Assembly (NCBI GenBank): GCA_965140585.1
Contig: OZ223272.1
Span: 224,001-288,000, forward strand
DNA from: Spirochaetia bacterium
Lineage (GTDB): Bacteria; Spirochaetota; Spirochaetia; UBA9216
Direction of reading: 5' to 3'
DNA length: 64,000 nt
Of the stretch, positions 3,233 through 55,937 are shown piece by piece; the stretch's first letter is position 1, and each line of letters begins with the position of its first letter. The translations under genes and the position numbers were made by a program. The notes under the pieces are model-generated. The model saw only the letters and a list, made by a program, of their open reading frames with translations, was not told where the DNA came from and did not search any database.

Positions 3233-3365
3233 ACTAATCCCCCGCAAATAATGCTGTATCTATTTATACCATAGATTTATACATTTTCTCTGATTTCAAA
3301 CTGATATTGCTCTGAAATGACGAAAAACAGAATTGCAAAGATGATAAGTTGATTTATAATAAATC

Positions 3366-3470
3366 ATACTCCGAGCTGACCTTCCTGCAGGGCGAATCTC
3401 AGTCTATGGAAGCAGGCCGCCAGGGTTGAACCGGAAACAGTTCAGCCTTCCAATCTTGAGAAGGAGAATA
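3366..3470 (+). promoter_or_regulatory. Moco/Tuco RNA motif (riboswitch candidate), P3-less form
   Basis: ACTCCGAG...CTATGG...CCAGGG, P4 GGTTGAAC/GTTCAGCC with GGAAAC loop, CCTTCC...GAAGGAG closing P1. Lies directly 5' of an Fe-S/AOR operon. Confidence 0.82.
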
Positions 3471-3487
3471 TCATTTAAGGAGGGGTT

Positions 3488-52068: not shown

Positions 52069-53558
52069 TTCAAAGAAAGCTCCAAACAAACCTCAGTCCC
52101 CTCTCCTGGGGCTGTTTTGATAGAAAGAGTTCCGCCAAGTTTTTCTGTATGCCTTTTAATCAATGTAAGCCCGAGGCCGGCACCCTTTTCATTACCTGTA
52201 CCGCGTGTGGACTTATGAACAATCCTGCTTGATTTAAGCGGATCAAAATCCATACCTGTCCCGTGATCACGAAAGGTTAAAAAAACAGAACCTTCATGCT
52301 GACGTGCATCTACTTCAATACTTCCTCCCTGATAGGAGAACTTGACAGCATTGGAAAGAATATTCCTGGCTAATATCATAAATGATTCACGCTCTATCAG
52401 CAGCTCAATATCCGGCTCTGCAGTAATCTTCAAATCAAGTTTCTTTGCATTTATATACGGAGCGAGGAGCTCTCCGGACTCAGCAAGCATTTGTTTTAGA
52501 CTGCAGTTCTCCTTTTTGATTTCGGTACCGCCCATTTCAAGCCTGGACCACTCAAGCAGATTAGACACAAGGATGGCACCGGTGTCAACAGCCATCCTCA
52601 ACTCACCGACGTATTCCTTTCGTTCAGGTTCTGACATTTGCTCATAATCATCATCAAGCCCCTGAATTACTCCTGTAATACCTCCGAACATTCCTGACAG
52701 ATCATGTGAGATTACTGAAAATAATCCGGATTTCAGTTCATCAGCCCTTTCCAGTTCATTTTTTCGGGTATTCAATTCATTAAAAATAGTCAGATAAGGT
52801 TCAGATATGCTTTTCTGTATTACAGCCCGGTATAGAAAATAAAAAGAAATTATCTTTGCAAAATGTCCTAGCATATTTGAAAAGCCGTAGTTGCTTGCAT
52901 AGAAGGTGAAGGATAATTCTGAAACAACAGTGAATGCAATTGAGAGATTGAGCATCCTGTATATTCCCGCTATAAATTTTCTACGTTTTCTGAATGCCGT
53001 AAAAAGTGAAAAAAGCAGGAGAATAATTATCACATACTCGCTGTATAATTTAAATGAGGTCTGTCCATGTCCTTCTACAAAACATACAGGGAAAATACCG
53101 GAAAAAAATATCGAATGAATCAGTATAATGGTTATCACCAGATATATAAAAAAGACAACGGATGTTCTGATTTTATTTCTGCGCCCTACAAAACTGAGCG
53201 AAACAATAAAAGTTAATGCTTCCAGCATCCTTGCCGCTACCCAAAGCTGGTTTGCATAGTACTCATAATCGGGAAATATATTCATCCCCTTATATCCAAG
53301 AGTATGCAGAAGATCCAGAAAGGCTATAAACAAATAGGCTATACCAAGGATAACCATATATCTCGCACTTAGATAATTCCTGCTGTTCCAAACCAGAATA
53401 AATATAGAGAAGGCTATAACTATACCAAATATTTCAGTCAGGGCGTGAAACAGCAGATAATTTCTACTCTGTATGATAAATAAACTCATTATTGAGAAGA
53501 ACAGTATAATCAGGGATGAAATTTTTATCTTTCTATCTGACTCGGCAGGTGAATCCAT
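52065..53558 (-). CDS. Sensor histidine kinase with MASE3-type membrane domain
   Basis: FH...E.F...., D..HTL.Y.GM, WV.AR, FK..SE MASE3-like pattern; ISHDL H-box, N.LSNA.KF, D.G.G, G.GLGL. Confidence 0.88.
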   Translation of the reverse strand: MDSPAESDRKIKISSLIILFFSIMSLFIIQSRNYLLFHALTEIFGIVIAFSIFILVWNSRNYLSARYMVILGIAYLFIAFLDLLHTLGYKGMNIFPDYEYYANQLWVAARMLEALTFIVSLSFVGRRNKIRTSVVFFIYLVITIILIHSIFFSGIFPVCFVEGHGQTSFKLYSEYVIIILLLFSLFTAFRKRRKFIAGIYRMLNLSIAFTVVSELSFTFYASNYGFSNMLGHFAKIISFYFLYRAVIQKSISEPYLTIFNELNTRKNELERADELKSGLFSVISHDLSGMFGGITGVIQGLDDDYEQMSEPERKEYVGELRMAVDTGAILVSNLLEWSRLEMGGTEIKKENCSLKQMLAESGELLAPYINAKKLDLKITAEPDIELLIERESFMILARNILSNAVKFSYQGGSIEVDARQHEGSVFLTFRDHGTGMDFDPLKSSRIVHKSTRGTGNEKGAGLGLTLIKRHTEKLGGTLSIKTAPGEGTEVCLELSLN

Positions 53559-53645
53559 AAAAGGAATTTTAGTTTATTCCCGGGGTTGATTCAACTTCTT
53601 TCAGTGAATAAGATTAGAAATCATTATATTTTGGAGATTGTACTT

Positions 53646-53864
53646 ATGGATAACAAGGTCATTCTGATAAACGGCTACACTAACGAGGAGACTCTTAAAA
53701 TAATGCGGGCTATAAAGGCGGTTCTTGAAGATCCCACAGAGGTAGCCTTTGCCATGGGAACAGAAACCAACCGGACCTGGGTGGTGAATGACCTGCTTAA
53801 AGAAGTCTCAGAAGAACATGAATATATGAAAAACAACCCTCCGGGACAGCATCAGAAAGGCTGA
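53646..53864 (+). CDS. DUF3783-like small protein
   Basis: Start re-assigned to ATG 53646 (GGAG RBS); FA..T.TN..W....L..E...EH pattern. Confidence 0.78.
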   Translation: MDNKVILINGYTNEETLKIMRAIKAVLEDPTEVAFAMGTETNRTWVVNDLLKEVSEEHEYMKNNPPGQHQKG

Positions 53865-54027
53865 TTTACATTAAAAATATATGCGTTCCCACAGGGACGT
53901 ATAACATCAACACTAAAGAATAATATTTGCTATATACTATAAAAAATAAATATTCATATATATATCTTATGTTTACATATATTATCAGCTGTATTTTTGA
54001 TGATTTAATTAATTTTCAAGTTTTAGG

Positions 54028-54056
54028 TTGACAAATATTCTGAATACTGTTTAAAT
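54028..54056 (+). promoter_or_regulatory. Sigma70-type promoter of leader/attenuator
   Basis: TTGACA-N17-TTAAAT in an AT-rich region. Confidence 0.6.
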
Positions 54057-54087
54057 ATAAACATCTTAACACAAGGAGACAGATTTG

Positions 54088-54159
54088 ATGATTAGAGTAA
54101 TTACATGCGTCACAGCGCTTTCTTATTTTAATTTTGTTTCATCGGAGAATCTGTCGTAA
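54088..54159 (+). CDS. Putative 23-aa leader peptide MIRVITCVTALSYFNFVSSENLS
   Basis: Strong AAGGAG RBS at ~54073-54078; ORF end overlaps a predicted antiterminator. Confidence 0.6.
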   Translation: MIRVITCVTALSYFNFVSSENLS

Positions 54160-54183
54160 CCTTGATTTATATAGCAGTTGGTT

Positions 54184-54215
54184 GCCGTGATTCTCTGAAT
54201 CACGGCTTTTTTTTT
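54184..54215 (+). terminator. Attenuator terminator 1
   Basis: GCCGTGATTC-tct-GAATCACGGC, perfect 10 bp, plus T9. Confidence 0.88.
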
Positions 54216-54231
54216 GCTGTATTACAGCCGG

Positions 54232-54266
54232 AAGCCGTAGACTTTACCAGTTTGCGGCTTTTTTTT
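54232..54266 (+). terminator. Attenuator terminator 2
   Basis: AAGCCGTAGACT-ttacc-AGTTTGCGGCTT (12 bp with G-U pairs) plus T-run. Confidence 0.8.
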
Positions 54267-54310
54267 CATCCGGAACATATCCCCGGATGATGTCAAAAAG
54301 GAGAGATAAA

Positions 54311-54556
54311 ATGTGTGCAGACGGTTATGACTACAGAACGGCTGCAGGGCTTCACAAGGACCGGCTTCGTGAAGCAGAATCAATCAGACTGGCTAAGAGA
54401 GCCAAATTGGCCTCTAAGGCTGCAATTGCAGATTCCCCTGCGATAGCAGTCAGCCGGATGGCGGAACCAACAGTGTTAAAGACCGCCGCAGAGAGCATCA
54501 GAATTTCGCTTGGCAGAAAACTAATTTCGCTTGGTGAGAAACTGATTGAAGCCTGA
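54311..54556 (+). CDS. Small basic helical hypothetical protein (81 aa)
   Basis: AAGGAG RBS before ATG 54311; L.EAE..RL and LG.KLI.LGEKL amphipathic segments. Confidence 0.72.
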   Translation: MCADGYDYRTAAGLHKDRLREAESIRLAKRAKLASKAAIADSPAIAVSRMAEPTVLKTAAESIRISLGRKLISLGEKLIEA

Positions 54557-54637
54557 TTCGTCCACGACGAGGACTCATTAAAAGTGAGGGGGAATAATGA
54601 AATGAATAGAGGAATTTTTTAATTAAGACTTAAACTT

Positions 54638-54670
54638 GAGCTGACCGGAGAACTCTCGGTCAGCTCTTTA
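54638..54670 (+). terminator. Terminator after small protein gene
   Basis: GAGCTGACCG...CGGTCAGCTC followed by TTTATATTT. Confidence 0.72.
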
Positions 54671-54767
54671 TATTTAGAGATAATTTCAAAACTAATCGAG
54701 TTTAAACGAAATTCTATACCTTACAATTTTTGTTGACATATATATTGTTATATATTAGCATCCTGAG

Positions 54768-55937
54768 ATGAAGAAATCGACCAATGTAATCCGCATCTCA
54801 ATACTTGCAGCAGTACTATTGCTTACTACAATTCAGGGACGGCTTCATGCTATTCTGAAGCTGTTTCCTCCTGTTGATGCATTCTGCCCCTTCGGAGGAC
54901 TTGAAGCAGTTTACGGACTTATCAAATACGATGCCATGATTAGGAAAATTGCCTTAAGCAGTTTTATCCTGTTAGGAGCTGTTTTAATTACGGCGTTATT
55001 TTTCAGACGAAGTTTCTGCGGCAATATTTGTCCGCTCGGATTTCTTCAAGAAATATCTGCAAAGATAGGAAGAAAGTTCTTTGTAAAAAGAAAGCCGATT
55101 CCCTCTGTTATTGACCGTAAACTGAGATACCTAAAATACGTTATTCTTGCTGTTGTAATAGCAGGAACCTGGTACACGATGAATTTGATTTTCAGACCCT
55201 GGGACCCATGGGCTGCCTACCATCATATAGGCTCGGATGAACTGTTTGCTGAATATCTTTTCGGTGTGATTATACTGGCTCTTTCGGTAGTAGTATCATT
55301 TTTTGACGATCGTTTCTTCTGTAAATATTTGTGCCCCATGGGCGCATTCCTGGCTCCCGTATCCAGAATTGGTATCTTTAAAATCCGCAATGACAGAGAG
55401 AAATGCATTTCATGCGGATGCTGCGATCATATCTGTCAGATGAACATTCCAATCGCGGATAAAACCGTAATTACATCAGCGGAATGTATTTCCTGTATGG
55501 AATGTGTAGAAATATGTCCTGTAGATTCGCTCTCTGTTGAAGCCCCGTCTGCCGGTGAGAAAAAAAGAAACCTTAAACCGTCCCTGCTTATAATTCTCAC
55601 AGCTTCTGTATTTGTAATTGTTATTGCAGTAACTACATTAACTGGAAGCTATGTATGGAAGGCTCCGACCGGACTCCCTCACAAAACAGAAAGACTGCTG
55701 CTTGGACCTGCACAGATAAAAGACAACAATAATTTTATTGATATCATTCAGATATACCGGATAAGCCCCGACTATATAATTTCCGAATGGAACATAGGAG
55801 AAGAGGAATTATCAGAACCATTTGAGGATCTGGGAATTGATCCGAAATTTGTCAGAGATTTTGTTGAAAAAATATACAGTGAAGCGGGACTTGATCCTAA
55901 AAATCTACTCGGAGGCGGAGGCCGCGGACAGCATTAA
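54768..55937 (+). CDS. Membrane polyferredoxin (YccM/NosR-like 4Fe-4S binding protein)
   Basis: DAFCPFGG, FCG.ICP.G..QE, FCKYLCP.GA, two CxxCxxC..C ferredoxin motifs. Confidence 0.9.
   Translation: MKKSTNVIRISILAAVLLLTTIQGRLHAILKLFPPVDAFCPFGGLEAVYGLIKYDAMIRKIALSSFILLGAVLITALFFRRSFCGNICPLGFLQEISAKIGRKFFVKRKPIPSVIDRKLRYLKYVILAVVIAGTWYTMNLIFRPWDPWAAYHHIGSDELFAEYLFGVIILALSVVVSFFDDRFFCKYLCPMGAFLAPVSRIGIFKIRNDREKCISCGCCDHICQMNIPIADKTVITSAECISCMECVEICPVDSLSVEAPSAGEKKRNLKPSLLIILTASVFVIVIAVTTLTGSYVWKAPTGLPHKTERLLLGPAQIKDNNNFIDIIQIYRISPDYIISEWNIGEEELSEPFEDLGIDPKFVRDFVEKIYSEAGLDPKNLLGGGGRGQH

Follow-up and report, generated by a model that had tools for sequence, protein, structure and literature searches.

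We report a candidate transcription attenuator in a metagenome-assembled genome of a marine Spirochaetia bacterium (genome G000), lying in a stretch of 64,000 nucleotides (nt) that we call the window and whose numbering we use throughout. The element forms a compact unit within positions 54020-54700 of the + strand, in which a short leader open reading frame (ORF; 54088-54159) and two successive intrinsic terminators, terminator 1 (T1; 54184-54215) and terminator 2 (T2; 54230-54266), precede a gene for a protein of 81 amino acids (aa; 54311-54556). An earlier note on this DNA had listed the leader ORF with its ribosome-binding site, both terminators, a third hairpin, the gene and a final terminator, and the sequence together with motif scans confirms that all of these are present. 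Terminator-like sites number 4 in the interval 53500-55200, against 1.0 +/- 1.2 in shuffled sequence, and a scan of the 4.85-Mb genome finds 2 same-strand tandem pairs among 589 terminator-like hairpins, one of them being this locus. The other pair (contig C6, around 224400-225170 in + coordinates) was rejected as an attenuator, as it falls at a coding region's 3' end, ahead of a TetR-like gene. For comparison we use six loci, representing five distinct lineages and two genera (the window's genus and a sister genus with four of the loci), and the order of the parts is conserved in all six.

The unit begins with a promoter at 54029-54057, consisting of a -35 box TTGACA (54029-54034), a 17-nt spacer and a -10-like TTAAAT (54052-54057), and transcription would start near 54064. 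The promoter claimed earlier holds up in part: the -35 box is invariant and in the same place in all six loci, whereas the -10 box fails the rule of our consensus scan in G000 and G001, which is why the scan did not list the leader promoter. The four sister-genus loci carry TTGACA-18-TATTAT or TAGTAT, with scores of 10-11 of 12. We also looked for an independent promoter-like site between T2 and the gene, and the promoter scan found none in any of the six loci.

Downstream of the promoter, a Shine-Dalgarno (SD) sequence AAGGAG (54073-54078) stands 9 nt ahead of the leader ATG, and the block AAGGAGACAGAT is invariant in 6/6 loci. Each locus has a strong SD, an ATG 8-11 nt on and an open frame of 18, 20, 21, 22 or 23 codons. 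In the window the frame spans 23 codons (MIRVITCVTALSYFNFVSSENLS) from ATG 54088 to the stop codon TAA (54157-54159); the ORF listing starts it at an in-frame TTG (54085), giving 24 aa. Every leader frame stops at the same invariant TAA, and the interior is unalignable between lineages. When the variable parts are shuffled, the frame stays open in 18-27% of cases per lineage, and taking four in-frame changes in length into account brings the joint probability to about 8e-6, a figure that assumes independent lineages and overstates the case somewhat. Judging from this pattern, the leader is probably translated. The leader-end block ATCTGTCGTAA is invariant, synonymous sites included, with a final codon TCG that is the rarest serine codon (usage 0.09), and the C-terminal (E/G)(N/D)LS of the peptide is dictated by RNA pairing. 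In all loci, 56-60 nt separate the stop codon from the end of the T1 U tract.

The leader RNA can be divided into four competing segments, whose helices we denote 1:2, 2:3 and 3:4. Segment 1 (54078-54085), the predicted anti-antiterminator strand, is GACAGAT (plus a T in the window genome) and lies between the SD and the start codon; segment 2 (54143-54161) comprises the final leader codons and the stop codon and can partner either segment 1 or segment 3; segment 3 (54180-54197), the 3' strand of the antiterminator, combines GGTTGC with the 5' arm and loop of T1; and the two arms of T1 supply segments 3 and 4. The terminator itself, with a stem of 10 pairs (54184-54206) followed by 9 T, folds at -16.0 kcal/mol (z score -8.0), has 100% of its alignment cells paired, and shows clear covariation, 3 of its 10 pairs having changed on both sides. 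The whole leader (54064-54313) reaches -84.5 kcal/mol (z score -7.0), and its full-length minimum-energy fold consists of 1:2, T1, T2 and hairpin 3 in all six loci.

Competing with T1 is the 2:3 antiterminator, an imperfect hairpin of 14-19 pairs and -14.6 to -20.0 kcal/mol across loci. In the window it spans 54141-54198 at -19.8 kcal/mol (z score -4.3), with 0/200 shuffles as good, and the pairings CGGAGAATC/GATTCTCTG and GTAACC/GGTTGC make up this minimum-energy hairpin, which bears out the earlier proposal that the end of the leader pairs with the region of the T1 5' arm. Tested in a fixed register, 85% of the antiterminator cells are paired, compared with 23-64% in slid controls. In the window's genus the T1 5' arm differs at three positions for which the T1 3' arm compensates, and an extra A in the leader yields an 8-pair outer antiterminator helix in a shifted register. 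The alternative pairings are kept, the antiterminator and the relay helix described below both folding in 6/6 loci. While the competing helices of the earlier reading are thus supported, that reading overlooked the conserved anti-antiterminator GACAGAT:ATCTGTC, a perfect 7-bp 1:2 helix that pairs 54078-54085 with 54148-54155 in the window and is part of the RNAalifold consensus.

We modelled the nascent RNA by cutting it just ahead of the T1 3' arm and placing a ribosome footprint at varied positions. The antiterminator is the minimum-energy fold in 6/6 loci for ribosome-free RNA and equally when the footprint covers the start codon or codon 5; the count drops to 4/6 with a ribosome in mid-frame and to 0/6 with one on the stop codon. 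These models agree with the earlier suggestion that full translation of the leader would give termination and stalling would give read-through. We further compared the best terminated with the best antiterminated fold in RNA that includes all of T1. With segment 1 free and no ribosome present, the terminated fold is favored by 4.0-12.5 kcal/mol, whereas a ribosome on the start codon reduces the difference to just -1.4 to +3.3 kcal/mol in 5/6 loci. Because the ribosome in that position removes most of the advantage of the terminated fold, segment 1 is predicted to act as an anti-antiterminator worth roughly 3-7 kcal/mol.

The second terminator, with a stem at 54230-54262 and an 8-T run at 54259-54266, folds at -18.1 kcal/mol (z score -5.8) and is linked to the first by a relay helix (54200-54241), in which the T1 3' arm and its first U's (54200-54210) pair with the T2 5' arm (54230-54241). 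The relay region 54198-54250 reaches -15.7 kcal/mol (z score -3.9; 0/200 shuffles as good), and the pairing ACGGCTTT/GAAGCCGT sits within its minimum-energy fold, as anticipated for the freed 3' arm of T1. The helix has 8-11 pairs in every locus, and one of its positions varies, being A-U in the window's genus and, in the other loci, G-U three times and G-C once (the pair tables for T2 and the relay are anchor-based, as MAFFT misplaces the T2 5' arm of the window). When the T1 3' arm of each locus was paired with the 5' arms of 587 further terminator-like hairpins in the window genome, 2, 2, 8, 19, 1 and 37 of them, per locus, matched the real T2 arm or did better. A helper hairpin, GCTGT-ATT-ACAGC in the window (54216-54228; 13 nt), lies between T1 and T2, enclosed by the relay helix; it is found in 6/6 loci with a sequence that differs by lineage and a position that is kept inside the relay fold, which fits a role in bringing the two relay arms together. 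In RNA cut ahead of the T2 3' arm, the minimum-energy fold combines antiterminator and relay helix in all six loci, so that the modelling favors the earlier idea of one switch disabling both terminators up to this point in transcription.

Following T2 is hairpin 3 (54266-54290; -12.4 kcal/mol, z score -3.3, 2/200 shuffles as good), identified by folding. Its position and not its sequence is kept in the six full-length folds, where it is the part that varies most between close relatives, and it may perhaps serve as an insulator or stabilizer ahead of the ribosome-binding site of the gene. That site, an SD at 54298-54305, is GGAG-rich in 6/6 loci. The ORF listing gives an 89-aa ORF from an upstream ATG, and alignments of homologues place the start of the gene at 54311. 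The unit closes with a terminator of 11 pairs, 7 of them GC, found by the terminator scan at 54638-54666, the terminator as a whole taking up 54638-54674.

Taken together, the unit contains in silico a leader ORF with its own SD, an intrinsic terminator before the gene, and a mutually exclusive antiterminator that overlaps the ORF. We consider it probable that it is a ribosome-dependent (leader-peptide) transcription attenuator with four competing segments and a relay-coupled second terminator; the models thus support an attenuator interpretation and extend it by the anti-antiterminator. In the mechanism we propose, an RNA with no ribosome on the leader would form 1:2 and then T1, and transcription would stop. 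A ribosome that keeps up with RNA polymerase and arrives at the stop codon would cover segment 2, again allowing T1 to form and transcription to stop. A ribosome held at the start codon or inside the 18-23-codon frame would instead block segment 1 and leave segment 2 free, in which case the 2:3 antiterminator would form first and T1 could not fold. The orphaned 3' arm of T1 would then pair with the T2 5' arm across the helper hairpin, T2 would fail too, and with both terminators disabled the basic 81-aa protein would be made. Since the leaders share no conserved run of codons or residues and the spacing from the stop codon to the T1 U tract is held at 56-60 nt, we infer that the device times the progress of the ribosome against that of RNA polymerase and is not a sensor specific for an amino acid or peptide. 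Given this, and a peptide hardly conserved apart from what RNA pairing demands, it most likely reports a general delay of translation (inhibitors, ribosome shortage, starvation) rather than the supply of one amino acid, and antibiotic or translation stress may be its signal.

Several observations weigh against this interpretation. The promoter is the weakest part of the unit, and the -10 box of the window is poor. None of the sequencing runs listed as containing the stretch is an RNA run. All 7 pairs of the 1:2 helix are invariant and show no covariation, so that its case comes from conservation instead. The covariation check on homologous leaders that was proposed earlier is informative for T1 and thin elsewhere: the antiterminator covariation score is reached by 63/500 shuffles, and the sole antiterminator pair changed on both sides (columns 104-126) falls in the inner AAYC:GRTT helix, which is compatible with T1. 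The shifted register in the window's genus fits maintenance of the helix and is suggestive, but it is a single evolutionary event. Covariation is therefore weak for both the antiterminator and the relay, as the five distinct lineages from two genera offer few independent events. G009 has a weak antiterminator of -14.6 kcal/mol, which stays 9.5 kcal/mol worse than T1 even when a ribosome sits on the start codon. The mid-frame models assume that 1:2 cannot close around the ribosome, and termination would be favored if it could. Finally, in the finished RNA of most loci thermodynamics favors T1 and T2: the completed T2 is the minimum-energy fold in 5/6 loci even with the antiterminator enforced, and the relay survives in 1/6. 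The relay must therefore act kinetically, and the attenuator model as a whole depends on the kinetics of folding.

The same attenuator might also house a specific sensor, with the nascent leader peptide (N-terminal pattern hydrophobic-Arg-hydrophobic-hydrophobic) arresting the ribosome only in the presence of a particular drug or metabolite, as in the erm, TnaC and SpeFL leaders. We find this unlikely. Of the five distinct leaders, 4 do start M-[IV]-R-hydrophobic (e.g., MIRV, MVRF, MIRI, MIRL), the fifth has L-R-Y-F two residues later, and the arginine codon AGA is kept; but the motif is loose and its position is shifted in one lineage, AGA is just the commonest arginine codon (usage 0.34), and selection to keep the initiation region open would account just as well for early codons rich in A/U. 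In addition, the two closest genomes differ within the leader ORF only non-synonymously, at codons 5-6. Sensing of charged-tRNA shortage through early Ile, Val, Thr or Cys codons, which the earlier note had offered as an alternative, starts from the I, V, I, T, C, V and T found among codons 2-9 of the window leader. The five distinct leaders, however, share no conserved run of a single codon or residue, and their codon usage is ordinary; the regulated gene is no biosynthetic gene, and its neighbors do not serve amino-acid biosynthesis. We reject amino-acid sensing, to which we give the least credence of all the explanations discussed here.

Two other explanations dispense with a ribosome-operated switch. 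The leader ORF with T1, and T2 as a fail-safe, could be a stand-alone small gene, the 81-aa gene being expressed by constitutive leak and the pairings being incidental or serving RNA stability. The strong SD of the leader, its own terminator and the closed, stable structure of the terminated RNA would all suit such a gene, and trans-acting leader peptides and attenuator RNAs have been reported for Sinorhizobium trpL. Yet two independent genes would leave unexplained both the excess complementarity between T1 and T2 and the invariant synonymous sites at the leader end, which are complementary to segment 1 and the T1 5' arm; moreover, all six loci lack a promoter-like site between T2 and the gene, and the leader is never seen without the gene among 401 genomes of the class. 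We hold this explanation to be improbable, somewhat more so than a specific sensor. Antitermination by a protein, small RNA or metabolite that binds the leader RNA, with the ORF incidental, seems very improbable: no Rfam family reaches its gathering threshold in the window unit or the five other loci, and SD, start codon, stop codon and competing helices account for all conserved bases, with an interior that is unalignable yet stays in frame. Two weak Rfam matches, Termite-leu (RF01730; 22.6 bits versus 51) and the trpB motif (RF04312; 25.9 bits versus 59), lie far below threshold and were dismissed as similarity of a generic hairpin-plus-U kind.

The protein controlled by the unit is small and basic (81 aa, isoelectric point 9.7). 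The 21 family members compared are Ala-rich, 62-81 aa long and have isoelectric points of 9.3-11.3, and the homologue alignment shows conserved N- and C-terminal helices joined by a variable linker. The AlphaFold model (predicted local distance difference test score 82, predicted template modeling score 0.38) is all-helical, with helices at residues 8-41, 43-51 and 54-80. Searches of Pfam, NCBIfam and PADLOC return no family for the protein (0 Pfam families at E <= 1), in line with the earlier statement that the regulated gene is neither biosynthetic nor a known resistance gene. PHROGs gives only matches with E >= 0.009, a PDB sequence search only E >= 6, and Foldseek against the PDB 0 matches, while the best score in the ESM Atlas (0.85) is to unnamed clusters, and we found no longer or fused forms. 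Its charge, considered together with its regulation, suggests that the protein may bind nucleic acid or the ribosome. Some homologues (P0003 and P0005; L004 and L007) are annotated with N-terminal extensions that run through T2, and in P0005 also through T1; the CGFF and YGFLF runs in these extended forms are translated terminator arms and U tracts, that is, annotation artefacts.

We identified the protein (68-81 aa) in 6 of 61 relative genomes, and in 6 of the 11 genomes (2/5 genera) of its own Spirochaetia family; in a sample of 401 genomes from the phylum, it occurs in the window genome alone. Among 5.8 billion proteins there are 21 clusters of it, and among 1.84 billion there are 5 representatives, none of them named. 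The exact pattern of the leader, with 45-85 nt between the SD block and the leader end, is present in 6/401 genomes of the class, which are the same six, with one copy per genome and 0 control matches. Because the pattern marks exactly the six protein-bearing genomes, one copy each, leader and gene form one inherited unit. A scan of genome contigs for leaders retrieved 5 true loci, the same as in the genome search, and one false match, L013, which is GC-rich and has no frame and was rejected as a leader locus. A metagenome scan found one locus, nearly identical to G009. Relatives are titled Spirochaetia, Spirochaetales and 'Candidatus Thalassospirochaeta'. Contigs from other organisms in the same samples (runs X1 and X2) encode further homologues of the small protein, one of which starts MFADNFNYQV, and the family therefore has several co-occurring lineages in those sample habitats. 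A contig of run X4 (about 86% identity) was not used as evidence; 12 leader differences are among those listed for it and 58 are unlisted, and every listed one falls close to the transcription start or in a variable leader codon, the antiterminator loop or hairpin 3.

The neighborhood is syntenic, yet the attenuated unit stands alone in it. Upstream are either an aldehyde:ferredoxin oxidoreductase gene with an MBL-fold gene, or a MASE3 histidine kinase gene with a DUF3783 gene, and downstream are genes for a NapH-like Fe-S protein, a DUF2147 protein and a saccharopine dehydrogenase. In the window, the gene for the NapH-like Fe-S membrane protein (54768-55937) has its own promoter-like site (54733-54761; TTGACA-17-TAGCAT, 10 of 12), and probably lies outside the attenuated unit; in G007, too, this gene comes next after the unit. 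Related loci have aldehyde:ferredoxin oxidoreductase genes close to the unit, and the window carries a molybdenum/tungsten cofactor riboswitch (RF01055) at 3357-3482 (+), with 56.5 bits against a gathering score of 36.

Between the stop codon of the gene and the final terminator, 5/6 loci have a strong SD with a mini-ORF 6-13 codons long, while G004 has none. In the window, as read from the sequence, the SD GAGGGGG and the 6-codon mini-ORF MNRGIF (54602-54622) occupy 54586-54622 of the + strand, and the peptides across loci are MNRGIF, MNRGKI, MIMMKRGTFNKVR, MIRVYNK and MMRDINS. The stop codon of the mini-ORF abuts the terminator stem in two loci, and this element of the 3' untranslated region may affect 3'-end formation or mRNA stability.

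The four-segment logic of the unit (1:2, 2:3, 3:4) is that of the trp leader of Escherichia coli, in which a ribosome at the stop codon, or the absence of translation, leads to termination. Unlike trp-type leaders, the spirochaete leader lacks runs of regulatory codons and its gene is not biosynthetic; its segment 1 lies upstream of the start codon and not inside the frame, and a second terminator is present. Leader-peptide attenuators that respond to translation stress have been described chiefly in Firmicutes, Proteobacteria and Actinobacteria, where they mostly stand ahead of resistance genes. The attenuator proposed here comes from the Spirochaetota; it belongs to no curated RNA family, and the protein behind it is an orphan.

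Its proposed logic is the same as that reported for vmlR of Bacillus subtilis, where an anti-antiterminator, an antiterminator and an intrinsic terminator compete around a short upstream ORF (uORF), and where stalling on the uORF blocks the anti-antiterminator and gives read-through (PMC9226507). vmlR differs, however, in encoding an ABCF resistance ATPase behind one terminator, with NusG-dependent pausing shown, whereas the spirochaete unit, described in silico only, has an orphan 81-aa protein behind two terminators and a leader with no sequence relationship to that of vmlR (no Rfam match). Two adjacent Rho-independent terminators are reported for the erm(K) attenuator of Bacillus licheniformis (PMC4335068, citing Kwak et al. 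1991), and this erm(K)/erm(D)-class leader is a leader-peptide transcription attenuator with the same tandem arrangement as the spirochaete unit. What erm(K) governs is an rRNA methylase, in response to macrolides and by way of a defined leader peptide, whereas the spirochaete protein has neither a methylase nor any other domain. A DUF1127 gene of Sinorhizobium meliloti is described as subject to uORF-dependent attenuation and proposed to gauge how available ribosomes are and how efficient translation is; like the spirochaete unit, it concerns a small gene of unknown function, and pairing at the uORF's own ribosome-binding site matters (PMC12218461). The critical element reported in that leader consists of the C-rich codons with which its uORF begins, whereas the spirochaete element is the stop-codon region, in another phylum, and the 81-aa protein has no DUF1127 match in the Pfam search (0 families at E <= 1). 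By sequence, the spirochaete element belongs to none of these systems and to no Rfam family. Our searches, which named neither spirochaetes nor the protein and are therefore weak evidence on this point, found no published description of the spirochaete element.

At the level of the family, the unit adds a new example to a known mechanism; it introduces no new principle, and every step has precedent. As the protein is an orphan, the logic of its regulation is the sole clue to its role, and this clue points to translation. We tentatively entertain the further possibility that the unit is a self-contained gauge of the pace of translation relative to transcription, with its strongly basic two-helix protein of 62-81 aa, seen in a few lineages of marine spirochaetes, acting as a previously unknown effector in translation stress, for example, as a ribosome- or RNA-binding factor, and with two terminators in series operated by a helper-aided strand-exchange relay. 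The unit offers a clean natural example of one switch that silences two serial terminators, useful for understanding very low basal expression and for designing RNA switches. If the proposal is true, a single decision set by ribosome position would be passed through both terminators, giving a tighter off state than that of leaders with a single terminator.

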